A stretch of DNA of 32,000 nt from Candidatus Fokinia solitaria (GCF_003072485.1 NZ_CP025989.1:660001-692000), one strand, 5' to 3'. Counted from the first letter of the stretch, positions 2,286 through 31,365 are shown. Notes: generated from the letters alone by a model not told the origin. Translations and numbers: made by a program.

Positions 2286-5147
2286 ATGCAGAACTCAGAT
2301 CACACAAGTACTTTCAAGAAAAAGATAGAGAAACAGCAGAAAAAAACGCAGCTTTTGGAACAACAAATTCAACAACTAGAAGACGAAATACAAAAGAAAG
2401 ATGAAATGATAAAAAAGACGAGTGATTCAATAATGAAAAAAATGAAGGATTTTATCTTAAGAAGACCTAAGAATTTAGACTTAGAAGCAAAGAGAAAAAA
2501 AATAAAGACAGAAAAAGCATTACTTCAAAAAGATGTTAAGATAGCGCAAGCAGAAGAGAAAAAATATCGCTATAACAAAGTAAAAAAGCTTAAGAAGCAA
2601 CAAAAAATAGCAGATGAAATAAAATCCGAAAATTTTACATTAGAAGATTTAAAAAATTCTAAGACCTTGGAAAAAATACAAACAGAAATGAATGACATAA
2701 CGAAGAAAGTGCAAGATGCAGGAGGGCAGTCGAAGATCTCAAAAGATTACAAGAACAAAGCAAAGGAAATACAGAACTTAGACAGTAAGCGTGCTGAGCT
2801 GGAAAAATTAGATACTGAGCTGAAAAAACTACTCGGACCAGTAAAGAGACAAGCTCCACTCGGTGCATCGCAATTCTCACAACTCGATATGAATAATGCA
2901 CAAAACTCGCAACTTAATGCGGGTAAAGCGCAAGAAGAACAATTTGATAATCAATCTAAAATAAGTAGCTTGCAAATTTCACAATTCGATATGAGTAAAG
3001 CGCAATCATTCCAACTTAGTGCAGATAATTTGCAAAAGTCACAAAGATCAGCGGTACAAAAACAAAACAGCGCTCCAAGTGCTATAGCACAGGGACAAGA
3101 AATGGAGATACAAAATCTTTCGCAAGAAGCTATTCAAAAAGAGGCTATTCAGCAAAAATTCGATACTCTTGATAAGGAAATTCAAGAACTAGCAAAGATA
3201 AAGGAACTTTATGAATTATCTCAGAGAGAAAAACAATTAAAAACAGTTCAAACGGCTATTGAAAAGTATATTAAACTTGAAGAGGAAAAAGCCACTTTAA
3301 AAGCACGATATAAACAATCGAAACCACAGCAGCAAGAGCAGCAAATACAAGAAGAATCACAAATACAGCAAGAGCAACAATCACGTAGAACATCAGAATT
3401 ATCACAGAAGTCACGAGTATCACAAAATAGAAAATCGACGTTGGTAGAAATATCAGATGAAGAAGCCGAACAGCTGCTGAAAAAGCGAAACCCGAAATCA
3501 CAGCAAAAAAAGCAATTACAGCGGGCAAAATCGGAAATTCAGCCACAATCGAAAATCCAGCAGCTACAGAAAGAAGACCAATCGCAAGTGCTACCACAGC
3601 GGTCACTATCACAATCGGCAACGCAACAGCAAAAAGAGCAATTACAGCAGGAGCAGCAACAGCAAGAAAAGCAATTACAGCAGTCGCTATCACAGCCACT
3701 ATCAGAAATACAGCAAGAAAAGCAATTACGGGAGTCAAAATCAGAAATACAGCAAGAAAAGCAAGAAGAGCAATTACAGCAGGAGCAGCCACAACTTAAA
3801 AGAGGCACAACGATGGATGATTACGCAAGAAAAGTCATTGAAACGATAGGCCCTTCACGTTATTCACCGTCTTTTGAGAAATTCTGTACTAGAGAAAATA
3901 TGGATTACATAATCAAAGTTTTAAAGAAAGACGGGAAATTCAACTCTCTATCAGATGCAGAAAAAAATGAATCGATAATAAACGTAGGTGTTACACTCGC
4001 AGCACAAGCAGCTATAAACTCGAATGGATTAAAAGGAAATGCAGCAGATCTCTCTCGAGACGATCAAATTGCACTATTAGAGTACATGAGAGGTAAAGGG
4101 ATATGTACCCAAATATTAAGTTCTCCGGAACAATTAGAAAGAGCAGTAAAATACGATCCGTATGAGGTTTTAGACAAAAAAGATAGAGATAGGCCAAATT
4201 TTCTTAGCAAAGCTATATTAAAAACAGACGCCAAGGAAAGAATTAATGAAGACACATCCGGAAAAAAATTCGCTGCATATATTGCGGGATACATTGCACT
4301 CGGACCTTTAGGATTATTAATTGCAATAATTTTTGCAAAATATTATTTATCTAAAGCAAAACGCCGTGAAGGAAAGGATATACGCGCGCTTCTCGATGCA
4401 AAACAGAATTATCGTCCAGCACCGGAAGGAAATTCAACGCAAAAAAATAGTCAAGCACTACAGCAAGATGTAAACAATATAAAATCGGAAAACACAGTAC
4501 TAGGGCAAAAAACAAAAGACCAGGTACAGAATGAATTGCACGAATTACTACAAAATAAACAATTTACGTCCTCTGAATTACTGAAACAAGCTATGCAAGC
4601 AATCAAAATAGCGGAAAAAATTCAAAAATATGATACAGAAAACCCCAACTCTTTTGAGGCACGCAAATTGGCAAAACCGTTAGAAGAGCTTATCGCAGAA
4701 CTTGTACAGAAAGGGCGAGAAAGATTAAAACGCGGTACAGATGATGACGGAGCGCTACGGTTGACAGAAAGTGAAATAGCACAGGATAAAATTTCACAAA
4801 AGAAGCTCGATGAAATAGAAGCGCAAGTCAATAATCTAGTGCAGAAGAAGGAAATTCCATCACAAATTCGCAATGAAGAGAGTGACTTTCTTAATAAAAG
4901 CTCGAATAGTATCATTGTAAATCAAAGCAGATTGTCAGAACGCTTTTCTCTTGACCTGAATGAAATCTCAGCTATTCAAAAAGGGGAAGGCGAAATACTT
5001 GCAAAAGATACCAACTCGCGAAACAATAGCATAATAAAGATACTTGAAGGAATGAATCTGCCTAATGCAGTAAACCGCTCGCAATCAGTTGACATAAGCA
5101 AAACATCATCACACGGCAGCAATGATAAATTCAGACATCACTCCTAG
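2286..5147 (+). CDS. Large K/E/Q-rich coiled-coil/low-complexity protein with one TM helix; orphan, putative surface or effector protein
   Basis: 953-aa ORF; the only competing ORFs are low-complexity shadow frames. There is no N-terminal signal peptide. It has a Q-rich block, a short globular-looking region, and a TM helix FAAYIAGYIALGPLGLLIAIIFAKYYL (nt about 4270-4350). No family recognised. Confidence 0.75.
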   Translation: MQNSDHTSTFKKKIEKQQKKTQLLEQQIQQLEDEIQKKDEMIKKTSDSIMKKMKDFILRRPKNLDLEAKRKKIKTEKALLQKDVKIAQAEEKKYRYNKVKKLKKQQKIADEIKSENFTLEDLKNSKTLEKIQTEMNDITKKVQDAGGQSKISKDYKNKAKEIQNLDSKRAELEKLDTELKKLLGPVKRQAPLGASQFSQLDMNNAQNSQLNAGKAQEEQFDNQSKISSLQISQFDMSKAQSFQLSADNLQKSQRSAVQKQNSAPSAIAQGQEMEIQNLSQEAIQKEAIQQKFDTLDKEIQELAKIKELYELSQREKQLKTVQTAIEKYIKLEEEKATLKARYKQSKPQQQEQQIQEESQIQQEQQSRRTSELSQKSRVSQNRKSTLVEISDEEAEQLLKKRNPKSQQKKQLQRAKSEIQPQSKIQQLQKEDQSQVLPQRSLSQSATQQQKEQLQQEQQQQEKQLQQSLSQPLSEIQQEKQLRESKSEIQQEKQEEQLQQEQPQLKRGTTMDDYARKVIETIGPSRYSPSFEKFCTRENMDYIIKVLKKDGKFNSLSDAEKNESIINVGVTLAAQAAINSNGLKGNAADLSRDDQIALLEYMRGKGICTQILSSPEQLERAVKYDPYEVLDKKDRDRPNFLSKAILKTDAKERINEDTSGKKFAAYIAGYIALGPLGLLIAIIFAKYYLSKAKRREGKDIRALLDAKQNYRPAPEGNSTQKNSQALQQDVNNIKSENTVLGQKTKDQVQNELHELLQNKQFTSSELLKQAMQAIKIAEKIQKYDTENPNSFEARKLAKPLEELIAELVQKGRERLKRGTDDDGALRLTESEIAQDKISQKKLDEIEAQVNNLVQKKEIPSQIRNEESDFLNKSSNSIIVNQSRLSERFSLDLNEISAIQKGEGEILAKDTNSRNNSIIKILEGMNLPNAVNRSQSVDISKTSSHGSNDKFRHHS
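3330..3795. repeat. Cryptic CAG/CAA-rich low-complexity repeats inside the 953-aa ORF
   Basis: Reiterated modules include tcagaaatacagcaagaaaagcaa (twice, about 3703 and 3739) and gagcaattacagcaggagcagc (twice, about 3636 and 3768). They encode SEIQQEKQ / EQLQQEQ units. Confidence 0.6.
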
Positions 5148-5216: not shown

Positions 5217-6338
5217 TTACTGCTGCAATAATTTTTGCAGAGTTACTTTATCATTCTCTTGAATTGCGTCTATAAACTCATTTTCCGTTATCGTTCTGAT
5301 AGCTTTTTCTTGAAATAGAAGTAAGATAATCAGTTCTGATATCTTAGATGAGGGAGTGCTACGTAGCGCTTTGATCAGATCGCTTTTTTGCTTATTCGAT
5401 AGAAATATATGCAATTCAAGCATTGCGTTCATCACTTCTGCATCTGAGGAAAATTGTAAGCATATTTGATGTAAAGTGGAAAGTTTCACATAATATGATT
5501 GCAACCAACGCAACGCTGCAATATCAAGAGTTGTTTCAAGATTGACGCGATAATAGAAATGACGTTCACGAAAAAGAAGATAATGTGCTATATCCAACAA
5601 TGCGATATCATTTTCAAAAGGAAAAAATACTTTTATTTCTTCTTCTGAAACGCTTATTCTGCACACATTAATATGCTTTTTATCCGACAAATCAAACACA
5701 TCACATTCGTGTTGTGCGCTAATACACATTTTTTCAATAGCATTCACTATCTCCATTCTACTCGTGCAAAGAATAATATGAGTACTCAGTAGTGAATCAG
5801 GACAGCCAAGTAGGATTGTAAGCTGTAGCCTATTCTTGGATAGCAAATACAGCCAAAAACTCTGCTTTTCCTGCTCTGAAGGAGAATAAGAATGAAATAA
5901 GGCAATATGTCGCGCAACCGATGGTGATTCAAAAAAGCGTCTTGTTTTCATATTTTTCTTCAAACCGCTTCCTATAACAGCAATAAACGTATTACGCGAT
6001 GGAGTGGAGATATGCTTACTCAGACGCTGAGACAACTCAGCAGAGATATCATTTGAAACAGAATCTATCACTATTAATTTATTCTCTTTTTTCTGACCAA
6101 ATAAGCTATAAGATCTCGTAACTTCATTTAGCAATTCTGGCTCCGCGTTCAATTGCTTGAAATTGATCTCATGTATCGAGAGAGTACCTCCATTTGCTGC
6201 AGCTTGAGACTTCAATTTACTTTTAAGTACCGACAATATAAAACACACTCCTCCATACTCTTCTCCAAAAGCAAACCATAAATTTTTTAGATTTTCTGCA
6301 TTAATCTCGCGTTCTAAACTATGATGTAGGTATTTCAT
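5217..6338 (-). CDS. Possible DNA polymerase III delta subunit (HolA-like); weak call
   Basis: 373-aa ORF that starts 1 nt after the ffh stop. NLWFAFGEEYGG resembles the N-terminal yLlyGeE block of delta subunits. SLFGQKKENKLIVID resembles the slFg..rlvvv block. The overall length and helical C-terminal half fit. By-eye similarity only. Confidence 0.4.
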   Translation of the reverse strand: MKYLHHSLEREINAENLKNLWFAFGEEYGGVCFILSVLKSKLKSQAAANGGTLSIHEINFKQLNAEPELLNEVTRSYSLFGQKKENKLIVIDSVSNDISAELSQRLSKHISTPSRNTFIAVIGSGLKKNMKTRRFFESPSVARHIALFHSYSPSEQEKQSFWLYLLSKNRLQLTILLGCPDSLLSTHIILCTSRMEIVNAIEKMCISAQHECDVFDLSDKKHINVCRISVSEEEIKVFFPFENDIALLDIAHYLLFRERHFYYRVNLETTLDIAALRWLQSYYVKLSTLHQICLQFSSDAEVMNAMLELHIFLSNKQKSDLIKALRSTPSSKISELIILLLFQEKAIRTITENEFIDAIQENDKVTLQKLLQQ

Positions 6339-8536: not shown

Positions 8537-9883
8537 CTATTGTTCTCTTGTTATTTCGAGAGTAGTATTTTTTAGTCTTTGCGGTATATTTCCGTACCCT
8601 CTTTCCAACTTGTCTGCATCGTCTAATATAGTATCGCCTTTTGCAAGAACTGCTGCAATAAGATAAGCTAATCCAGCTCTGATATCAGGTACAACTATAG
8701 GCTCTTTCAATGCGTGCAGTTCCGTTTTACCTTTTACTATCGCACTATGCGGATGATAGTATCCTCTATAACGACAATTTGAGCTACCAAGACATGAGTG
8801 AAATATAGAAATATCAGCACCTAATTGATTCAACATATCAGTATAACCTAGTCTATTTTCATATACCGTCTCATGCACTACTGAAGTGCCACGCGCTTGA
8901 GTTAGCATTACAGTAAACGGTTGCTGCCAATCAGTAGAAAAGCCTGGATATACGTCTGTTTCAAGCACAAGTGGCGATATTACGCTATTATATTCGCTAT
9001 AAAATCGTATTGAATTTTCTGAAAGAATTTCGAATCTACCTCCTGCCATATTCAAATACGACAGAAAGATACCAAGAAGCTCAGGATTAATCCCTTGCAA
9101 CGTAATATCACTACCTCTTACAGTGCATGCAAGTAACGCCCACGATACCGCTTCTATTCTATCTCCTATAACATGAAAATTCACGCCTTTTAACTGCTTT
9201 ACTCCATGCACAATCAACTCTCGATTCGGATTGATGAAGATCACAGCGCCCATGCATCTTAACATGGAAATTAAATGCATTATTTCCGGTTCCATCGCTA
9301 TGTTTTTTATGACACTCATACCATCAGCTAATACAGCTAGAAATAAGCATGTCTCAGTAGCGCCAACTGAAGGATATGGAAGAGTAAAATGAGTACCAGA
9401 CAATTTATGATTTTTACGCGCACGAAAGCAATTATTACCGACCTCTACCTCTCCGTTAAACATTCTTATAGCTTCAACGTGAAAATCGACTTTTCTTTTA
9501 CCAATCTCATCACCCGTAATAGTAGGCACTTCTACTTCATCGAACAATTGTAATAATACGCTAAGAAGCAATATCGGAATTCTATTTGTAGCAGAATCCG
9601 GCAATACAACTATTGCTTTAGATATAGAACGAGGATCGATCGTCACTTTACCAAAGTGAGAGTTATCATCTCTATCAAACTTCACATCAGCACCTGTCAT
9701 CTCTATCATTTTTCTTGTAATCTCTACGTCTCCGATATATGGCATATTCCACAAAGTACTCTCAGTACTACCAAGCATCGATGCAAGCATCACTTTTGTT
9801 GCAAGATTTTTAGCACCTAAGCATTGTATATTACCTATAATTGGAGTACCGCCGCGTATTTTATACCTTATTTTCGTTGTCAT
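8537..9883 (-). CDS. murA: UDP-N-acetylglucosamine 1-carboxyvinyltransferase MurA (Asp in place of the catalytic-loop Cys)
   Basis: 448 aa. It has GAKNLATK (Lys22 region), the loop ITGDEIGKRKVDFH, STDWQQP and PDIRAGLA. It is collinear with E. coli MurA by eye. Confidence 0.9.
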   Translation of the reverse strand: MTTKIRYKIRGGTPIIGNIQCLGAKNLATKVMLASMLGSTESTLWNMPYIGDVEITRKMIEMTGADVKFDRDDNSHFGKVTIDPRSISKAIVVLPDSATNRIPILLLSVLLQLFDEVEVPTITGDEIGKRKVDFHVEAIRMFNGEVEVGNNCFRARKNHKLSGTHFTLPYPSVGATETCLFLAVLADGMSVIKNIAMEPEIMHLISMLRCMGAVIFINPNRELIVHGVKQLKGVNFHVIGDRIEAVSWALLACTVRGSDITLQGINPELLGIFLSYLNMAGGRFEILSENSIRFYSEYNSVISPLVLETDVYPGFSTDWQQPFTVMLTQARGTSVVHETVYENRLGYTDMLNQLGADISIFHSCLGSSNCRYRGYYHPHSAIVKGKTELHALKEPIVVPDIRAGLAYLIAAVLAKGDTILDDADKLERGYGNIPQRLKNTTLEITREQ

Positions 9884-10425
9884 CGTTTCTTCTTTTCATA
9901 TTTACGATTTTTGACAGGATAAGAAGTAAAGACGTATAATCCGATATCATCATCCCGTGCAGTAGCTTTTAGCACAACATTCGCACGTTTTAAATTCATT
10001 TTCTCACCATCATTCTGAATACCGAAGCCTATTTCCTTAGATGCGTCCGTAGTGACAAGCAATGAGGCTTTCTTTCTTTTATCGCCATTTTCCTTTACTT
10101 TTCCGATATTTTCTAACCATTCACATATTTTATCCTTATTCTCTTTTAATGCTTTTCGGATAGTTTCATTTGCAGATTCTTCGCTAAAGTACGTCGATAC
10201 AAAGCTTACACTTCTACAATGCATTTTACTTTTCAGCCATTTTTCACTTTTTCCAATGTGCTCTGAATATGTATGAGAAAAAAACATACGATCATTTTCA
10301 CTGACGTCAAATTTTGCAGCATACTGCAGCAATTTTCCTTCACATACCGTCTTCTTCTCTTCTGCTAGACTAACGGTAGCGGTGCATACCGATAATGCTA
10401 GTAATGCATATATTAATCTTTTCAT
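9880..10425 (-). CDS. Signal-peptide protein with bacterial RNase A-like (CdiA-CT / RNAse_A_bac type) toxin domain
   Basis: 181 aa. The leader is MKRLIYALLALSVCTATVSLA followed by EEKK. The mature part has SHTYSEHIGKSEKWLKSKM ... ANETIRKALKENKDKICEWL ... ANVVLKA ... LYVFTSYP. This matches my remembered pattern of the family (GHT..RHVGKt...L..R ... a...l..n...i..Wl ... vvl ... y.lTaYP). The stop overlaps the murA start as ATGA. Confidence 0.55.
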   Translation of the reverse strand: MKRLIYALLALSVCTATVSLAEEKKTVCEGKLLQYAAKFDVSENDRMFFSHTYSEHIGKSEKWLKSKMHCRSVSFVSTYFSEESANETIRKALKENKDKICEWLENIGKVKENGDKRKKASLLVTTDASKEIGFGIQNDGEKMNLKRANVVLKATARDDDIGLYVFTSYPVKNRKYEKKKR

Positions 10426-10628
10426 ATTACTTGCGATATTTCCTTTCTCTTTTACATTAGCTTGCTTCTCCTTTCTATAATTACTTGAGAGTACTCATAC
10501 ATTTTTCAAGTATTTGTCGTAAATTTTCTCTCATCATAAAACAACGGAGTGCATTTCAACTTCTCAAGATTATTGTGCTACATGTAAACAATATCGTTGT
10601 ATATAAGCATTTAAACTAGTAAATGTGC

Positions 10629-11000
10629 GCACGTAGTATATAAGCCGAGTTCTGTAGTGCTAATAGCACCGAGAGTCATTTCTCTAGCCTTGCCGTCTCC
10701 AGCAAGTTCCAGCGATCTACCCTAGAACAATTACTCTCAGAAGAGGAGAGGCAAGAAATAAATCTTGCATGTTCTGCTACTTGATCTTGCTTCAAATGGG
10801 GTTTGCAATGCAAATCTCGTCACCGAGATCACGGTAAGCTCTTACCTCACCTTTTCACCCTTACCATAAAGGCGGTATATTTTCTGTTGCACTTTCCCTT
10901 AGGCATTAATACCTAGCTAGGCATTACCTAGCATTTTTCTTCAGCGAAGCTCGGACTTTCCTCTATACTTTAAAAGTATAGCGACTCTCCAACTACGTAC
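10629..11000 (-). ncRNA. rnpB: RNase P RNA, bacterial type A
   Basis: The minus strand reads ...AGAGGAAAGTCCGAGCTTCG... (P4 5' strand), AAGTGCAACAGAAAATATACCGCC, and GGTAAGGGTGAAAAGGTGAGGTAAGAGCTTACC. It also has ACAGAACTCGGCTTAT (P4 3' strand, with a change compensatory to the 5' strand). A P1 helix joins GTACGTAGT (about 11000-10992) to ACTACGTGC (10637-10629). The ends are approximate. Confidence 0.9.
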
Positions 11001-12875: not shown

Positions 12876-12958
12876 TACCTCTGACTGGACTCGAACCAGC
12901 ACATCCGCAAAGACAGCAGATTTTGAGTCTGCCGCGTCTACCATTCCGCCACAGAGGC
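12876..12958 (-). tRNA. tRNA-Leu (anticodon CAA)
   Basis: The minus strand reads GCCTCTG-TG-GCG-GAATGGTAGA-CGC-G-GCAGA-CTCAAAA-TCTGC-(long variable arm)-GCTGG-TTCGAGT-CCAGT-CAGAGGT-A. It folds as a cloverleaf with a 7-bp acceptor stem, a T-loop TTCGAGT and a class II variable arm. No CCA is encoded. Confidence 0.9.
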
Positions 12959-21244: not shown

Positions 21245-23161
21245 ATGAGTAAAGTAATCGGTATCGATCTGGGCACAACAAATTCTTGTGTCGCAATTAT
21301 GGAGGGAAAAAATCCGAAGGTGATAGAAAACGCTGAAGGTACAAGAACTACTCCATCTTTCGTCGCATATGTAGAAGGTAATACTACTGTAGTAGGTGCG
21401 CCCGCAAAAAGGCAAGCAATCACCAATCCATCTAAGACGATATTTGAAGTCAAAAGATTAATAGGAACGAAGTTTGACGATAAGTTTGTACAAGATTCTG
21501 TAGAACATCTACCGTATAGAGTCGTTGCAGGGCCACATCAAGATTCTTGGGTAGAAGTAGATGGAAAAAAGCTCTCTCCAAGTCAAGTAAGTGCGGAAAT
21601 TTTGAAAAAAATGAAAGCCACTGCTGAAGCTTTCTTAGGTTATAAAGTAACGGAAGCTGTTATTACTGTACCAGCATACTTCAATGATTCTCAAAGACAA
21701 GCTACAAAGGATGCGGGGAAAATAGCAGGATTAGAAGTACTGAGAATAATAAATGAGCCAACTGCTGCAGCGCTGGCATACGGTCTTGATAAAGGAAATA
21801 AAAGTCAAACAGTTGCAGTATATGACTTAGGTGGAGGTACGTTTGATGTATCGATACTGGAAGTGAGTGATGGAGTATTTGAAGTAAAATCTACAAGCGG
21901 TGATACTACTCTCGGAGGAGGTGATTTCGATAATAGAATCATCCAATTCTTATGCGATGAGTTCAAAGCGCAAAATAGTGTAGATTTAACAAATGATAAA
22001 TTTGCATTACAGAGACTTAAAGAAGCAGCTGAAAAAGCAAAAATAGAGCTTTCCAGCACAATGGAAACTGATATTAACCTTCCGTATATTACGGCAGATG
22101 CATCAGGGCCTAAACATCTGACAGTGAAGATGACTCGCGCAAAACTTGAAAGTATTACAAAAGATCTGATAGAAAAGACAGTCGCGCCATGCCAAAATGC
22201 TCTAAAAGATGCAGGAGTTAGCATAGGACAAATAGACGAAGTAATCCTTGTAGGAGGAATGACAAGGATGCCAGCTGTTGTTGAGAAAGTTAAAGAAATA
22301 TTTGGCAAAGAACCGCACAAAGGAGTAAATCCTGATGAAGTTGTTGCAATAGGTGCCGCAATACAAGGCGGTATCATCAAAGGTGATATAAAAGACATCC
22401 TTTTACTTGATGTAATTCCTTTAACACTCGGTATAGAAACTATGGGAGGAGTAGCAACACCTTTGATCCCTAAAAATACCACAATTCCATCGAAGAAATC
22501 ACAGATATTTTCCACTGCAGCTGATAATCAAACTGCCGTTACAATACGTATAGTGCAAGGAGAGCGCAAATTTGCAAAGGACAATAGAGAGTTAGGTATA
22601 TTCACGTTAGAAGGTATCCCCCCTTCTCCTAGAGGAATACCACAAATTGAAGTTGAATTTAACGTAGATGCAAATGGTATATTGCATGTATCTGCGCGCG
22701 ATAAGTCCAGTGGTAAAGAACAGAGAATTACTATACAGTCTTCTAGCGGATTATCCGATGATGACATACAGAGAATGATAAAAGAAGCAGAACAAGCAGC
22801 AGAAGAAGATGCTAAAAAGCATACTCTAGTAGAGTTAAGAAATAGTGCTGATTCAGCAATTCATTCAGCCGAAAAATCCATGTCAGAACATGGAGATAAG
22901 ATCTCGCAAGAAATTAAAGATTCTGTAAATAATGCAATCTCTACTCTTAAATCCGTGATGGATTCAGATGATCCAGAAGTATTAAAAGAAAAGATACAAG
23001 CATTGAATAATGCTTTGATCGCTATAGGGCAGCATATGCATCAAGGTAGTGAAACAAGCAGTAATGGAGAAAATGCTCAGACAGATCAAAGCGGCGAAAA
23101 GAAAGAAGATGAGTATGTTGATGCTGATTACGAAGAGGTAAAAGAAGACGAGAAGAAATAG
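21245..23161 (+). CDS. dnaK: Molecular chaperone DnaK (Hsp70)
   Basis: 638 aa with [33 protein letters not shown] and an acidic C-terminal tail. Confidence 0.98.
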
Positions 23162-23545: not shown

Positions 23546-23574
23546 TTGAAAATAGCCCTGTAATTACTTAGCAT
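23546..23574 (+). promoter_or_regulatory. Cassette promoter, copy A (diverged)
   Basis: TTGAAA (23546-23551), a 17-nt spacer, then TAGCAT (23569-23574), 28 nt before the ATG at 23603. Copies B, C and D have the same architecture and the same -10 hexamer. Confidence 0.45.
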
Positions 23575-23602
23575 GCAGGTACTTCAATTTTTACACATAG
23601 AT

Positions 23603-23863
23603 ATGCCTTTTTCCGCCTTATGCTTTGTGATATACACATCGCTAATGACTTTGATATTTCCTCAAAGCAATGCAATTGCGGAAACTGAAATCTCATATAA
23701 TACCGAAGTAAGTACCATTACTAAGATGGTACTGAGTGCTGAAATCGCTGATGAAATTCAGCGCAAAAAAGTTGGATATCATTATAGAAAAGGACATTCT
23801 TGCACTAGCAAAAAAGGTCGTACTTATTATAGAAGAGGACATTACTATCATAGAAGAAAATAG
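23603..23863 (+). CDS. Secreted small protein, family member A (leader + ETEISYN motif + Y/H/R/K-rich basic tail)
   Basis: The start is moved to ATG 23603 so the N-terminus MPFSALCFVIYTSLMTLIFPQSNA/IAETEISYN aligns with the leaders of members B-D. The ORF-track ATG at 23573 lies inside the predicted -10 element. Confidence 0.6.
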   Translation: MPFSALCFVIYTSLMTLIFPQSNAIAETEISYNTEVSTITKMVLSAEIADEIQRKKVGYHYRKGHSCTSKKGRTYYRRGHYYHRRK

Positions 23864-23942
23864 TAAGTCAAAGAATAGTAGTAGCGGGAGTTTTTCACCT
23901 TCTGCAAATCTAAAATAGCGTCGCAGTGCTATAACTTTTCAA

Positions 23943-24065
23943 GTGTTGCAAGTTGTGTTGTGATTATCTAGCATACGCATGTTTTAATTCTCATGTGTAG
24001 ATATGCCTCTGCTGATCTTGTGCTTTGCAGTGTGTGCATCGCTAATAACTCCCCTTCTTCAAAGC
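23943..24065 (+). repeat. Partial (123 bp) copy of the promoter + leader module
   Basis: It aligns to 26203-26325 and 27019-27141 without gaps, with about 5 mismatches to copy C by eye. Similarity ends right after the leader (caaagc). Confidence 0.85.
23946..23974 (+). promoter_or_regulatory. Cassette promoter, copy B
   Basis: TTGCAA (23946-23951), a 17-nt spacer, then TAGCAT (23969-23974), 28 nt before the ATG at 24003. Confidence 0.45.
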
Positions 24066-26066
24066 GATGCAGCGATAAAGCCAAATAAATTTCGCACTTA
24101 TTCTAACAATAATCATGGTAATGATGAGCTTTATAATGCAATAGTGCAAGCGGCTATCGCTAGAGAGTTCAGCCAGCCATTACCACCTACTCAGCATGAA
24201 CAGGAACTGCTAGATTTGGCGCAAGCTAAGCATGATGCTGAAGTTGAAAATCTGAAAGAAGATAATAAAAGGAAAGAAGCGGCGAGAAAAGAAGCAGCTG
24301 AAATAGCAAAATGGGAAAGGTTAAAGGCGGCAGCAGACGCTGAGAAAGCAAAATCAGAAAAATTGAAGGCAGATTCAGATGCGAGGAAAGCAATAGAAGA
24401 GAAGATAAAAAATATAGCAAAAGATGCACAATATATATCAGTTATAGATGACATTGAGGCGAATAAAGTGAAAATGATGAGAATACTAAAGAGAAATCCA
24501 GAAATGCTGGAGAAAATGCAGAATGATTCTGCGTTAGAAGAGTATATAAATAAAATAATGAGTGACGCCTATAATACTGAAACTAAAAGATATGAATTTA
24601 ATATAGGGAGTCTTGCGACATTTTATACTAAGTATGGCCTTGAAAGGGAAGATGCTAGAGAGCTAGCGTGGTTATGTAGAAGAATTTTAAAAGAAACTGG
24701 CTTTTTGATGGCTGTTACAAGAGCGAAAGGCGATATCATTAGTGAGCGATATAATACACTAGATCTTGAAACATTGATGATGGAGATTAGAGAGAATAAA
24801 AGTGATATGATAGATACTTATTTGCAAAGAGTAAGGACGGCAACACTGACGCAGATGACAGGTGAATTATTATCATTAAAAGAAAGGGGCGTTATATCGC
24901 AGAAAAGATATGACGGCATAATTGAAGATATATTTCCAGAAAACAGTATACTATCTCCTTATTCACAAGAGATGTATGAAGAACTTACTAATAAAAAACA
25001 TGCTTCATATGGAACAAAGGAAGCGCGGGAGGAATATGATATTAATTACGAGGAAGGAAAAGAGAACGATGAACGGCAAGAGGATAATGTATCAGCTGTA
25101 GTAGCTAATATGAATAATAATGATGGTAACGATGTTACTGATGATACTATTACTGGAGGAGACGGAGATAATGGCGGTGATAATATCGTTAACAATCCTC
25201 CGGCTAACAATAACGATGGCGGTAGTATCAAGAATAATAAAATTAATAGCGCGCATCCTATAGGAATGGACAATGATACGGCCAATGCTATGGCGGATGC
25301 TAAGAGTATTATTAATGCGAAGAACTTTCGAGATTTACCAGGTGGACAAATAGCAAGCGCAATAGCAAAATCAGCGACAAAAGCCGCTATTGAATTACCA
25401 ACAGCACCTGATCAGATTATTCGTTTTGTTGGAGATTTAATACAACGAGGAGTAAAAGGGAAGAAAAATTTTAAGCCAATGAGGCCAGTATTAGATTACG
25501 CATTAGATGCTTCGGATAAAGCATTACCAGGTATAAGTAAGACATTAAGGCCTCTTGCAGATGTGTTCTCTTTAGAAGGGCAGGCTAGATTGGCGAAAGA
25601 GGTAGGACTAGAGGATAATTTAGGACTGACTCGAGAGGAGAAAGATAATCCTATAGCGAATACAGCTGCACATATAGCGGATTTCGCTGTAGGGTATGGT
25701 AAATTAAATACTCCATTAAAAGCGATGAAAGCTATAAATCCGACTGTAGCATTAAACGTATTTCGAAAAGATATCCCGAACGCACTAAAGGAAGGCGGTA
25801 AGATAGCCAAAGATGTTGGATCATGGATCGGAAGTAAAGGAGAGAATTTACCTAAAGTATGGCAAGGAATTAAAAAAGCAAAAGAAGGGATGACATCGGC
25901 ACTAAGAGAGACGGTTAAATCAAAGGGTACAAATATAGCAGAGATGGTAGCGCGAAGTAAAATAATACCACATTCTCTACTTAATGCTGCGAAAGGCGCG
26001 GGTAAAATACTAGTATATGAAGTAGCACGTGGCAATCTCAAAGGAGATGATATCTATGTACTATAG
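24003..26066 (+). CDS. Secreted large protein, family member B (leader, K/E/A coiled coil, N/D/G-rich linker, unknown C-terminal region)
   Basis: 687-aa ORF with the leader MPLLILCFAVCASLITPLLQSDA. The antisense ORFs within it are shadows. No family recognised. Confidence 0.8.
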   Translation: MPLLILCFAVCASLITPLLQSDAAIKPNKFRTYSNNNHGNDELYNAIVQAAIAREFSQPLPPTQHEQELLDLAQAKHDAEVENLKEDNKRKEAARKEAAEIAKWERLKAAADAEKAKSEKLKADSDARKAIEEKIKNIAKDAQYISVIDDIEANKVKMMRILKRNPEMLEKMQNDSALEEYINKIMSDAYNTETKRYEFNIGSLATFYTKYGLEREDARELAWLCRRILKETGFLMAVTRAKGDIISERYNTLDLETLMMEIRENKSDMIDTYLQRVRTATLTQMTGELLSLKERGVISQKRYDGIIEDIFPENSILSPYSQEMYEELTNKKHASYGTKEAREEYDINYEEGKENDERQEDNVSAVVANMNNNDGNDVTDDTITGGDGDNGGDNIVNNPPANNNDGGSIKNNKINSAHPIGMDNDTANAMADAKSIINAKNFRDLPGGQIASAIAKSATKAAIELPTAPDQIIRFVGDLIQRGVKGKKNFKPMRPVLDYALDASDKALPGISKTLRPLADVFSLEGQARLAKEVGLEDNLGLTREEKDNPIANTAAHIADFAVGYGKLNTPLKAMKAINPTVALNVFRKDIPNALKEGGKIAKDVGSWIGSKGENLPKVWQGIKKAKEGMTSALRETVKSKGTNIAEMVARSKIIPHSLLNAAKGAGKILVYEVARGNLKGDDIYVL

Positions 26067-26360
26067 CACGCCATTCTGAGGGATATAAGTGGTGGGAAAA
26101 CAGTTATCTCATACGATAATGGTACTCTGACAATTCGCAGTCATTTCCATCACTACCCTCTTCTACAAACTCAGACTGATACGGTATTTTATGATTATCT
26201 GAGTATTGCAAGTTGTGTTGTGATTATCTAGCATACGCATGCTTTAATTCTCATGTGTAGACATGCCTCTACTGATCTTGTGCTTTGCAGTGTGTGCATC
26301 GCTGATAACTCCCCTTCTTCAAAGCCACGCAATCACGAAAACTGAGATTTCATATAGTGC
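26057..26360 (+). repeat. 304-bp direct repeat, copy 1 (tail + 18-mer + promoter + leader + first about 9 mature codons)
   Basis: It aligns to 26873-27176 at a constant offset of 816 bp with no indels and 9 mismatches by eye (about 97 percent identity). Confidence 0.95.
26206..26234 (+). promoter_or_regulatory. Cassette promoter, copy C
   Basis: TTGCAA (26206-26211), a 17-nt spacer, then TAGCAT (26229-26234), 28 nt before the ATG at 26263. Confidence 0.45.
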
Positions 26361-26862
26361 TTCTGAAGATGCTGCTTCTGAAGAGAAGTTGATTAAGCTG
26401 TACGATGAAGCGATCTCGCTATTAAATCAGCTCATAGAAAGTACCAGGGAACACACTTCACTCCTAGAACAAGATATTGAACTAGAGAAAGTGTTAACGC
26501 TTTGTAAGAAGCGGACAGGACGAGATAACTGGCAGTACTGGTCTAATAATGCCATATATTCTCTTTGCCAAGAAAAACGTGATTCACAAATAGCACTACG
26601 GAAGAAAAAGATTCAGCTGTTGGAGTACTATAAACAAATGTGCCATAAAGAGAAGGAAGTAAGAGAACAAATTCATAACATCTATAGTGCTATGGCTAGC
26701 AACGAAAGAGAAATAGTACGAGAGAAGCGAGCAAAGGCAATCTTTTTGGCAAAGCAGTGGGATAATGAAATCTCGCAACACGATCGGCAAGTTGACTTAT
26801 TAAAGAAAAATATAAAAGAATATGAAACAGAACTACTAAAATATGGTTACGTCTTTGAGTAG
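26263..26862 (+). CDS. Secreted helical protein, family member C
   Basis: 199-aa ORF with the leader MPLLILCFAVCASLITPLLQSHA/ITKTEISYS. The mature part is charged and helical-looking and cannot be aligned by eye to B or D. Confidence 0.75.
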   Translation: MPLLILCFAVCASLITPLLQSHAITKTEISYSASEDAASEEKLIKLYDEAISLLNQLIESTREHTSLLEQDIELEKVLTLCKKRTGRDNWQYWSNNAIYSLCQEKRDSQIALRKKKIQLLEYYKQMCHKEKEVREQIHNIYSAMASNEREIVREKRAKAIFLAKQWDNEISQHDRQVDLLKKNIKEYETELLKYGYVFE

Positions 26863-26872
26863 CTCGTAAACT

Positions 26873-27176
26873 TGTACTATAGCACGCCATTTCGAGGGAT
26901 ATAAGTGGTGGAAAAACAGTTATCTCATACGATAATGGTACTCTGACAACTCGCAGTCATTTCCATCACTACCCTCTTCTATAAACTCAGACTGATACGG
27001 TATTTTATGATTATCTGAGTATTGCAAGTTGCGTTGTGATTATCTAGCATACGCATGTTTTAATTCTCATGTGTAGACATGCCTCTACTGATCTTGTGCT
27101 TTGCAGTGTGTGCATCGCTAATAACTCCCCTTCTTCAAAGCCACGCAATCACGAAAACTGAGATTTCATATAGCGC
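26873..27176 (+). repeat. 304-bp direct repeat, copy 2
   Basis: See copy 1. Identity ends within 3 nt of the same position (tag[t/c]gc), after which C and D coding sequences are unrelated. Confidence 0.95.
27022..27050 (+). promoter_or_regulatory. Cassette promoter, copy D
   Basis: TTGCAA (27022-27027), a 17-nt spacer, then TAGCAT (27045-27050), 28 nt before the ATG at 27079. Confidence 0.45.
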
Positions 27177-27462
27177 CATTGAAAAAAGTGCTTTCGAAGA
27201 TAAAGTACAAAGCTGGGAGAGAAGAATCAGATACTTAAAAAGAGAAGTAGAAGATTTGCGCACCAAAATCTCATATAACACTGCGGGAAAAAAGAAGATT
27301 GAAGGTTTATTATGGGAGATTAGGAGTTTAATGCTTGAGATCGAAGATCTAAGAGCTACCACCTCATATCCTTCTGTTATCTCAGATGAATGCACGCGTT
27401 TAGAAGTAGAGATCAAATGGCTAAAATTCGACTTAGAATGGGAAGTACGATACTTAAAGTAA
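27079..27462 (+). CDS. Secreted coiled-coil protein, family member D
   Basis: 127-aa ORF with a leader identical to C at the protein level. The mature part has an internal repeat (EVEDLRTKISYNT / EIEDLRATTSYPS). A 122-aa antisense ORF is judged a shadow. Confidence 0.7.
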   Translation: MPLLILCFAVCASLITPLLQSHAITKTEISYSAIEKSAFEDKVQSWERRIRYLKREVEDLRTKISYNTAGKKKIEGLLWEIRSLMLEIEDLRATTSYPSVISDECTRLEVEIKWLKFDLEWEVRYLK

Positions 27463-27555
27463 ACTGGTAAAGAGGGTAAAGTAGCAGATTTATGTATTTT
27501 CAAATTATTTAAAGACTGCTATCATCTACTTGGTAAATGAGTGATACGGTATTTT

Positions 27556-28014
27556 ATGAACATATTTCATAATACTTTTACAAGGCTCTTCGCTTCTTTT
27601 GTTTCGCAAGATAAATACGGTAATAAGTACTATACATCAAGGAAATTCTCGAAATACTTCTTAGCTTCATCATCTTCCAGGAGATGGGTGGTGTACTCTA
27701 ATTTTTGGGGAGATTATTTTCGCAATGAATCTACTTCTATCGATAACAGCAATTTCAACTGGCTATACCATAGACAATCATCATCCGCACATAAGGATGA
27801 GACATTACATCACAAATACGATAAAGTATTTCTGAATGATTCAGGCCGCACACCAGCGACTGATGACAACGTAGAAACTTACATTGCGCATTGCAATTCC
27901 AAAGAGTTACCTAATACACCGAATCTTACTGGCACCGTAGCGCGCATGATGCATACTAGCTATGGTTGCAAGAATCGGCTTGTTGATGTAGAGTATTTTC
28001 CTTGGAATTACTAA
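27556..28014 (+). CDS. NADH:ubiquinone oxidoreductase subunit NDUFA12 (B17.2)-like protein
   Basis: The blocks DKYGNKYY, RRWVVY, NWLYH and NLTGT are typical of alphaproteobacterial NDUFA12 homologues. ATG at 27556 is preferred over the GTG at 27541. Confidence 0.75.
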   Translation: MNIFHNTFTRLFASFVSQDKYGNKYYTSRKFSKYFLASSSSRRWVVYSNFWGDYFRNESTSIDNSNFNWLYHRQSSSAHKDETLHHKYDKVFLNDSGRTPATDDNVETYIAHCNSKELPNTPNLTGTVARMMHTSYGCKNRLVDVEYFPWNY

Positions 28015-29853: not shown

Positions 29854-31365
29854 ATGATAGAAACAATACGTGAAAAAGCTATGGCATTGAATAGAAATAG
29901 AGAAAATATCGGAAGAGGCAATGATGGCATCAATGCGAACATGCTGTCATTTATAGGTAATCTCTTTATAGGAGTAATTGGTACAAGTATAGTATCATTA
30001 ATAGGAAATAGCATGCGTAGTCTCGGCAAAGCAGAAGTAGGATGCGTGAATGAAGTGGAAGAGTACTTTAAGAGAGTATGCGAGGAGGATGAGCTGCAGA
30101 ATTTAGAGAATAAGAGGGAGAAAGGAGATGATAAAGTGGCAAAGGTAGTGCAAGAAGTGGCGAAGGAAGAAGAGAAGGTAGTGCAAGAAGTGGCGAAGGA
30201 AGAAGAGAAGGTAGTGCAAGAAGTGGCGAAGGAAGAAGAGAAGGTAGTGCAAGAAGTGGTGAAGGAAGAAGAGAAGGTAGTGCAAGAAGGTAAGAAGGAA
30301 GAAGAGAAGGTAGTACAAGTAGGTAAGGAGAGAATAGTAGAGGAAGAGAAGAGGAGAGAAAGATGGGAAGGATTAAGTGAGGAGCAGAAGAAGAAAATGG
30401 AGAAGCTGCAGATCTCAGAAGAAAGCAAGAAAAAAACTATTATTAGAAGGCAGGAGGAGATCAAAGCATATCCAGAGGTAAAAGATTACGACGATAAGAT
30501 GATGTTCATTCGAAAAAAGCTAAGCGAGAAATCGCTTCAATATGAATTACTAGTGAATCAGATAAAACAGAAGAAATTACTAGGAGAGTTAGATTCTATT
30601 CTGGAAATGGAAAAACAAAAGAATGAGAGAGAGTATGAGCAATGGGTAATAAGAGAAGAGAGAAACCGTGATCAGCTGAAACATGTACAAGAGCAGGAAT
30701 TGCCAAAGTTTATAATCACTGAAAACGATAGAAGAGCAATTGTGTGGAAAGAAGCATCGGAAAAGCTTCTTCAAGCAAGTGTAATAGCAGCTCAAGCGTG
30801 GCAAATGGAATTAAAAGGAGATGTAGGAGGAGCTGCTGCACTTCGAAAACAGTATCATTCTCCTCTCATGGAGGATGCTTATAAGATCAGCATGAAATTA
30901 CACGATCTATACAGTATTGCACCGTTTGCTCCTGCTAGATTAGAAGATAAAGATGTTGTGATGAAAGGAGGTACGAGAACAGATTACAGGACTTATACCT
31001 CTCCTAATAATCCAAATGTGTTATTCACTCACAGTTCAAAGAAGTTTTATAATGCATTTAAGGACGTTATACATAAGATACACTTCTGTAAACCTATGAA
31101 AGTAGGAGACTTCAATCCTTCTATATTCGAAGGTGATAGAAAAAAGGAAATAATGGTCGCTCCTATGTGTACTTCTCCTCATTGTTGTCCAGGAACATCA
31201 GAGTTAACTCCTAGAGAGTTTTTTGTCACAGATGATCATTACAACAATGCCGATGTATTTACCCTCTCTACCAATGATATGTTATACACTACATACGACG
31301 GTGTAGTTCATCACAATGGCGGCATCGATTCCTCCATACTTCATACAGATAGCGTTATATCTTAG
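29854..31365 (+). CDS. E/K-rich tandem-repeat protein with N-terminal hydrophobic segment and unknown Cys/His-containing C-terminal domain; putative effector/surface protein
   Basis: 503-aa ORF with a hydrophobic segment MLSFIGNLFIGVIGTSIVSLIGNSM. It has 11-aa repeats VVQEVAKEEEK (three exact copies plus two variants). No family recognised for the C-terminal 200 aa. Confidence 0.75.
   Translation: MIETIREKAMALNRNRENIGRGNDGINANMLSFIGNLFIGVIGTSIVSLIGNSMRSLGKAEVGCVNEVEEYFKRVCEEDELQNLENKREKGDDKVAKVVQEVAKEEEKVVQEVAKEEEKVVQEVAKEEEKVVQEVVKEEEKVVQEGKKEEEKVVQVGKERIVEEEKRRERWEGLSEEQKKKMEKLQISEESKKKTIIRRQEEIKAYPEVKDYDDKMMFIRKKLSEKSLQYELLVNQIKQKKLLGELDSILEMEKQKNEREYEQWVIREERNRDQLKHVQEQELPKFIITENDRRAIVWKEASEKLLQASVIAAQAWQMELKGDVGGAAALRKQYHSPLMEDAYKISMKLHDLYSIAPFAPARLEDKDVVMKGGTRTDYRTYTSPNNPNVLFTHSSKKFYNAFKDVIHKIHFCKPMKVGDFNPSIFEGDRKKEIMVAPMCTSPHCCPGTSELTPREFFVTDDHYNNADVFTLSTNDMLYTTYDGVVHHNGGIDSSILHTDSVIS
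30145..30309 (+). repeat. 33-bp in-frame tandem repeat, 5 full copies (degenerate copies flank it to about 30130-30345)
   Basis: The unit gtagtgcaagaagtggcgaaggaagaagagaag occurs at 30145, 30178 and 30211 (identical). Variants follow at 30244 (1 change) and 30277 (about 4 changes). Confidence 0.95.

Follow-up and report, generated by a model that had tools for sequence, protein, structure and literature searches.

Several bacterial gene families join conserved upstream DNA, a conserved leader and conserved first mature residues to diverse protein bodies, and by analogy the architecture that concerns us here is already known from them. In Borrelia burgdorferi, the Erp proteins (OspE/F-related, with their 'upstream homology box', UHB) have conserved promoter/operator DNA, leaders and first mature residues, the remainder being diverse and shaped by recombination (PMC10016077). 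The Vpma/Vsp genes of Mycoplasma agalactiae and Mycoplasma bovis are clustered, with highly conserved 5' untranslated regions (5'UTRs) and signal-peptide regions and mature parts that lack significant homology to one another and contain repeats; their products are lipoproteins (AAKC motif), and the Vpma locus phase-varies at high frequency via a molecular switch (PMC2268961). The phytoplasma effectors SAP11 and SAP54 both bear the SVM signal-peptide motif, PF12113 (PMC8026896), and in the Staphylococcus aureus lpl cluster the exchange unit consists of the 3' end of one open reading frame (ORF), then the intergenic region, then the 5' start of the next ORF (Tsuru and Kobayashi 2008; PMC2568036). 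We analysed a tandem array of four ORFs, A to D, in a 32-kb window of the genome of Candidatus Fokinia solitaria, whose products start with similar leaders and continue into bodies that cannot be aligned. The organism is a Paramecium endosymbiont of the Midichloriaceae (Rickettsiales) with a fast-evolving 837-kb genome, the smallest of the Rickettsiales reported at its publication in 2018, and the array genes go undiscussed in the genome paper (PMC5905368).

The four ORFs are co-oriented on the + strand between dnaK on the left (21245-23161) and NDUFA12-bolA-lpdA on the right (NDUFA12-family gene, 27556-28014; flanks assigned with Pfam), with a 441-nt non-coding gap between dnaK and A. Gene A (23603-23863) encodes 86 aa and corresponds to a RefSeq-only protein, WP_145958131; genes B (24003-26066, 687 aa), C (26263-26862, 199 aa) and D (27079-27462, 127 aa) encode proteins identical to Fsol_00630, Fsol_00631 and Fsol_00632. 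Each gene is preceded by TTG[A/C]AA, a 17-nt spacer, TAGCAT and then 28 nt to the ATG (-35-like hexamers at 23546, 23946, 26206 and 27022; TAGCAT at 23569, 23969, 26229 and 27045; ATGs at 23603, 24003, 26263 and 27079), the block before A, with TTGAAA, spanning 23546-23574. Each product begins with a hydrophobic leader of 23-24 aa that ends S-x-A (codons 1-24 in A, 23603-23674; codons 1-23 in B; 26263-26331 in C; 27079-27147 in D). The leader is followed by I[AT][EK]TEISY[SN] in A, C and D (TEISY at 23684-23698, 26341-26355 and 27157-27171), B having AIKPNKFRTYS instead, and the mature parts are 62, 664, 176 and 104 aa long. A preliminary description of this DNA had set out the ORFs, spacings, leader, motif in three of the four genes, lengths and flanking genes, and we confirmed all of these on the sequence.

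We interpret the array as a tandem gene family specific to its lineage, encoding helical proteins that are probably exported through Sec, with 5' ends kept alike in concerted evolution by local duplication and gene conversion, a reading to which we give a probability of roughly 0.55. A weak sigma-70-like promoter of its own would drive each gene, the short 5'UTR lacking a Shine-Dalgarno (SD) sequence, and each product would be exported through Sec by means of its leader; cleavage by signal peptidase I behind S-x-A would leave I-[AT]-[EK]-TEISY at the new N-terminus of A, C and D. The array would have grown by tandem duplication at its NDUFA12-proximal end, with 21-nt junction copies as the footprint, the 5' ends of B, C and D would recently have been homogenised by gene conversion or unequal crossing-over, and the mature parts would have diversified both by diverging very fast and by internal duplication, the latter being seen in D and A. 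The products would most likely be periplasmic, cell-surface or extracellular and deal with the host cytoplasm. The array would then be a candidate set of host-interaction factors, locally expanding and probably exported orphans with a selectively maintained module, and a compact case in which tandem duplication, 5'-end gene conversion and internal repeat expansion give new secreted proteins in a shrinking genome; it would involve no new mechanism, the same architecture being established in Borrelia, Mycoplasma and phytoplasmas.

With Borrelia Erp/UHB genes the array has in common conserved upstream DNA, leader and first residues, a likeness of architecture only: the Erps are lipobox-bearing lipoproteins with known host ligands, encoded at allelic sites on multiple cp32 prophage plasmids, whereas the Fokinia genes lie in a single chromosomal tandem array, lack a lipobox and give no Pfam, NCBIfam or PHROG match to OspE, OspF or Elp. 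Phytoplasma SVM genes are scattered in mobile-unit regions and encode Gram-positive-type Sec substrates, whereas the four Fokinia genes are adjacent and belong to a diderm member of the Rickettsiales; PF12113 (SVM_signal) gave no match to A-D (Pfam, E ≤ 0.1). The Vpma switch is a site-specific recombinase that moves one promoter by inversion, whereas in Fokinia every gene carries a promoter block, all are co-oriented and a recombinase was not found nearby. Conotoxins, with a conserved signal/pro-region and a hypervariable mature part that diverges rapidly once genes are duplicated in tandem, offer a looser parallel, as may anuran antimicrobial peptides and mussel CRP-I, but such eukaryotic secreted-peptide families are exon-structured, under positive selection on toxin or defence function, and have no mechanistic link to the Fokinia locus. 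The Fokinia genes resemble the Erp, SVM and Vsp/Vpma families in architecture and belong to none of them: they lack a lipobox, do not match PF12113, have neither a recombinase nor inversion sites and show no homology in sequence.

The case for concerted evolution lies in where identity among B, C and D begins and ends. B shares with C and D a 130-nt tract of 95% identity (23942-24071, with copies at 26202-26331 and 27018-27147) that spans -61 to +69 relative to the ATG, starting 4 nt before the -35 hexamer and closing with the final codon of the predicted signal peptide. C and D share a longer repeat, 300 nt at 97% identity from -206 to +94 (26057-26356 and 26873-27172), followed by 31 nt at about 65%. 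This repeat begins 10 nt inside ORF B, giving B's last two codons and stop, continues through a 117-nt 'tail', a 21-nt copy of the NDUFA12 junction and the promoter block into C, where it covers the leader and TEISY before stopping in codon 31. Within the tracts, the hexamers are no better conserved than the spacer, the 5'UTR and the synonymous sites (leader codons 1-21 differ among B, C and D by two synonymous changes only); outside them, identity falls to background within a few bases, at positions specific to each pair.

Because the tract ends are abrupt and non-coincident, and because synonymous and spacer sites are conserved as well, the near-identity of B, C and D reads as the mark of a segmental duplication or gene conversion in the recent past, and not of purifying selection on the module. 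The 'reusable cassette' of the preliminary description loses its footing here, since the near-identity covers neutral sites and ends abruptly in each pair. The C/D repeat has the same layout as the S. aureus lpl exchange unit, its abrupt, pair-specific ends spanning an ORF end, an intergenic region and the next ORF start, as in lpl-like concerted evolution. The lpl genes, however, are homologous along their full length with a central conserved recombination site, whereas the Fokinia genes are conserved at the 5' end and have bodies that cannot be aligned.

A footprint of duplication lies directly before the promoter blocks of C and D, where GACTGATACGGTATTTTATGA (26174-26194 and 26990-27010) matches the 5' junction of NDUFA12 (27539-27559) at 20 of 21 positions (z = 9.1). 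The original takes in the NDUFA12 ATG (27556) and the next base, that is, the first 4 nt of the gene together with 17 upstream nt, and the similarity reaches about 45 nt, its identity decaying with distance. Exactly this GACTGATACGGTATTTTATGA junction would result from a tandem duplication that broke four bases into NDUFA12 on the right and just before a module on the left.

Constraint on the module is instead indicated by its old copy, A. Its comparison with C shows saturation at synonymous sites (synonymous divergence, dS, 1.18), while the ratio of non-synonymous to synonymous divergence (dN/dS) amounts to 0.26 for the module and 0.16 for the TEISY segment. Where a hydrophobic residue has changed, another hydrophobic one stands in its place, and the 61 nt before the two genes are identical at 38 positions (62%), concentrated in TTG-AA and TGTRATTAYYTAGCAT. 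It is because of this divergence pattern, and not the near-identity of B, C and D, that the module appears to be under purifying selection and functionally constrained; the preliminary view that it is functional in A, whose hexamers are kept, is upheld by a dN/dS of about 0.26 at a dS of about 1.2. Beyond the module, the tail of A is basic, rich in Tyr and His, and contains a 15-aa tandem duplication of 45 nt (23763-23807 and 23808-23852).

The E-I-S codons of TEISY lie in a 10-bp near-palindrome, TGA[A/G]AT[C/T]TCA (23686-23695 in A, 26343-26352 and 27159-27168 in C and D); because of it, the TEISY codons of A and of C/D form an inverted repeat, for two synonymous changes turn the C/D version TGAGATTTCA into its exact reverse complement, TGAAATCTCA, the version found in A. 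This relation is probably a coincidence.

Further evidence for a family comes from the mature part of D, which consists of three repeats of about 33 aa (27154-27261, 27262-27357 and 27358-27459) that open with TEISY, TKISY and TTSY and keep a heptad-like helical character; the first and second score z = 9.1 against each other, a value reached in 0 of 1000 shuffles. As each unit starts with a TEISY-type motif, TEISY belongs to a protein repeat unit and not solely to a leader cassette. Just past the 97% tract, C and D are identical at 7 of 11 residues, and their similarity runs to residue ~42. All payloads are K/E-rich. The AlphaFold2 (AF2) model of C has three long helices (residues 34-84, 97-143 and 150-193; predicted local distance difference test, pLDDT, 69; predicted template modelling score, pTM, 0.67) and resembles generic three-helix bundles only; B is modelled as helical at low confidence (pLDDT 43), with an N/D/G-rich, low-complexity, disordered centre. 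On this evidence the payloads are not shown to be unrelated. The earlier description of them as unrelated is overstated: no similarity was seen past residue ~42-44, but C and D are similar for roughly 11 residues past TEISY, D repeats the TEISY unit, the K/E-rich composition is shared, and B and C are modelled as helical.

The leader has most, though not all, of the features expected of a Sec signal peptide. Its hydrophobic core, L3-I15 (LLILCFAVCASLI), has a KD9 (9-residue hydrophobicity) of 3.3 and is followed by Pro17 at -7, as in a signal-peptide h-region of about 7-15 residues that ends at a helix breaker. None of the four copies departs from Q-S-[HDN]-A, which places S at -3 and A at -1, as at signal peptidase I sites. 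No lipobox of the form [LVI][ASTVI][GAS]C was found at the leader end: Cys7 stands after LIL or SAL and Cys11 after FAV, so no leader Cys has G, A or S before it, and Cys7 also lies too near the N-terminus. In the AF2 model of C the leader is helical over residues 2-19 and is followed by an unstructured linker before the first mature helix. A cleavable signal peptide is the most likely reading of the leader, and a signal-anchor is a live rival.

If the leader is an uncleaved signal-anchor, the products would be helical proteins tethered in the inner membrane and facing the periplasm, neither released nor at the surface. The absence of basic residues before the hydrophobic stretch is compatible with this, as are the uncharged, very hydrophobic run of 19-20 residues (KD19 2.35), long enough to cross a membrane, and the AF2 models of B and C, in which residues 2-19/20 form one helix. 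Pro17, however, splits the stretch and leaves a core of 13-15 residues typical of signal peptides, Q-S-x-A is kept even in the old copy A, and purifying selection on TEISY just past the putative cut fits a defined mature N-terminus; on balance we consider tethering unlikely, though worth keeping in view.

A leader with a basic n-region, unlike those of the array, occurs elsewhere in the window, where a 181-aa ORF (9880-10425, - strand) starts MKRLIY and has a textbook signal peptide, MKRLIYALLALSVCTATVSLA before EE. The ORF matches Pfam PF18431, 'Bacterial CdiA-CT RNAse A domain' (E = 8e-20), and matches the NCBIfam entry 'RNase A-like domain-containing lipoprotein' below its cutoff; its stop overlaps the start of murA by 4 nt. 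These features mark it as an RNase of toxin type, secreted by an endosymbiont that is highly reduced.

Several observations weigh against the interpretation of the array as a family of Sec-exported proteins evolving in concert. The leaders start MPLLIL or MPFSAL, with a net n-region charge of 0 and no Lys or Arg where Sec signal peptides have basic residues, so that the signal-peptide-like character claimed in the preliminary description is borne out for the h-region, the S-x-A site and the missing lipobox and fails for the n-region. The promoter block is a weak sigma-70 match (8-9 of 12 positions); as a generic promoter scan of the region was also uninformative, with no excess over shuffles (17 versus 16.9 sites), the sole promoter evidence is the conservation between A and B-D. 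Beyond residue ~42-44, pairwise similarity between payloads is not detectable (protein z -1.2 to 0.7), and a search for payload DNA homology that allowed for frameshifts, with blastn (word size 7) and tblastx, gave nothing below E ~0.03. The 117-nt tail does not match the 3' flank of D except in its last ~45 nt, which implies a rearrangement history more complex than one simple duplication. Finally, within one genome, gene conversion and the recent copy-and-paste of a 130-300-nt segment before other sequence fit alike.

One alternative is module capture, in which a selection-maintained promoter/signal-peptide/TEISY cassette was copied before independent, truly unrelated payloads to give new exported proteins. 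The B versus C/D tract, which starts 4 nt before the -35 hexamer and stops exactly at the last predicted signal-peptide codon, is what such copying would leave, no payload pair has detectable protein or DNA similarity, and evolution of this kind has been proposed for the Borrelia erp genes (PMC10016077). The C/D tract, on the other hand, is no clean cassette, as it also holds 145 nt of upstream non-promoter DNA and reaches back into the last part of ORF B; beyond it 7 of 11 residues are still the same in C and D, the payload of D is made of TEISY-unit repeats, all payloads are alike in composition, with B and C modelled as helical, and the copies in the window are only four and all adjacent. 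We regard capture as possible but doubtful. A speculative variant, itself unlikely, is that a selection-maintained promoter-leader-TEISY export cassette is pasted again and again, by local recombination, onto independent or de novo sequence; were it true, a very small Rickettsiales genome would be making new exported proteins to deal with its ciliate host, and TEISY would act, much like the sorting residues of Borrelia lipoproteins, as a post-cleavage sorting or processing signal.

It is less likely still that the array is decaying debris of a recent duplication, with one functional copy, perhaps B, and with A, C and D as drifting, truncated ORFs. F. solitaria evolves fast and under drift (PMC5905368), no homologues were found for A-D, ORFs of 86 aa like A arise about twice per shuffled window, and the tail, open for 54 codons in its first copy and stopped in its second, points to relic sequence within the array. 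ORFs of at least 127 aa, however, are essentially absent from shuffled windows, which places C (199 aa) and D (127 aa) far above chance length, and the annotated frame has the best codon-usage score of the six frames for all four payloads. Copy A keeps its start, spacing, hexamers, hydrophobic leader, S-x-A and TEISY despite its saturated synonymous sites, C folds in silico as a coherent three-helix bundle, and the repeats of D keep their heptad-like helical character.

A phase- or antigenic-variation locus that switches expression among payloads is very improbable: the architecture is like that of Mycoplasma vsp/vpma and Borrelia erp, and direct repeats of 130-300 nt could mediate deletion or duplication of units, but each copy has its own promoter block in the same orientation, we found no recombinase domains among the ORFs of the window, the modules are not bordered by inverted repeats, promoter and leader are free of homopolymer and short-repeat tracts, and the host is a ciliate without adaptive immunity. 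The effector or antigen-diversification role put forward in the preliminary description accordingly found no supporting evidence.

When matched with up to three mismatches, a degenerate pattern of the leader DNA and one of the promoter block each have exactly these four sites in the 32 kb, where 0.05 and 0.03 matches are expected by chance; these copy counts refer to the window of this one genome, and tblastn of the window with the leader peptides gave no further leader copies, intact or degenerate. Outside the source genome, a scan of genome contigs with the leader-DNA pattern returned 13 matches, all unrelated and at chance level, and a metagenome search with the four-sequence leader alignment matched 124 pattern stretches, none of which was confirmed. 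Metagenome contigs searched with LpdA gave a best match of 46% identity, with gene content showing no synteny to the Fokinia locus. No SD sequence precedes the array genes, SD absence being normal in this window, and no intrinsic terminators were found on the + strand between the genes. A sigma-32 reading of the promoter block was weighed by eye and dropped as unconvincing.

Searches with the proteins point to an undescribed, orphan sequence family of singleton clusters. B, C and a concatenation of A and D retrieved only themselves from a 5.8-billion-cluster protein collection, a negative to be read with care for short proteins, as the search returned neither A itself, which is present there, nor leader-only 21-residue matches at E ≤ 10. 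An exhaustive HMMER search of 1.84 billion representatives with B found no homologue; the one other hit, a highly repetitive 795-aa protein (P0004, E = 7e-9), aligns to the amphipathic C-terminal region of B in many registers and was judged to match through composition or repeats and not through homology. A-D also had no match in Pfam (E ≤ 0.1), PHROG, NCBIfam or PDB sequences. The preliminary statement that the genes fit no described family is therefore sound as regards singleton clusters and family matches and too strong as regards architecture, which is known from the Borrelia, phytoplasma and Mycoplasma systems.

The intergenic tail was considered both as a decayed module and as an RNA element, and neither was retained: what likeness it has to module coding DNA falls short of significance (z 1.2-1.7), its fold z-scores are only -1.8 and -2.8, and it has no Rfam match. 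Its similarity to the region before A is weak (z 3.8). The predicted fold (26078-26160 and 26169-26204, the same in copy 2) contains a long-range stem, GAGGG...GUGGUGGGAAA / UUUCCAUCAC...CCCUC, without a U-tract, and a hairpin CUCAGA...UCUGAG adjoins the -35 hexamer. In the frame of B the tail is open for 54 codons past the B stop (26064-26234), to the TAG of the next -10 box, and encodes KTVISYDNG...TDTVFYDY, which is TEISY-like; copy 2 (26880-27050) has an in-frame TAA. This open frame may be a relic of a former coding sequence.

Gene B also shares 23 of 24 nt with dnaK (24288-24311 and 22019-22042), in frame in both (KEAAEIAK and KEAAEKAK; blastn E = 2e-4 within the window), either by chance in A/G-rich Lys/Glu codons or by micro-conversion.

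Other proteins of the window also lack recognisable domains. Fsol_00636 (29854-31365, + strand, 503 aa), without a Pfam or NCBIfam match, contains about six tandem 11-aa repeats (VVQEVAKEEEK) in a region of strong positive GC and AT skew; Fsol_00609 (2286-5147, + strand, 953 aa) has no Pfam domain and a coiled-coil-like N-terminus; and a 373-aa ORF (5217-6338, - strand), likewise without a Pfam domain, has weak similarity to holA (NCBIfam E = 3e-7, below cutoff). K/E-rich helical, lineage-specific proteins seem to be common in the F. solitaria genome. The window further contains ordinary housekeeping RNAs, namely a class A RNase P RNA (10625-11000, - strand) and a tRNA gene (12876-12958, - strand).

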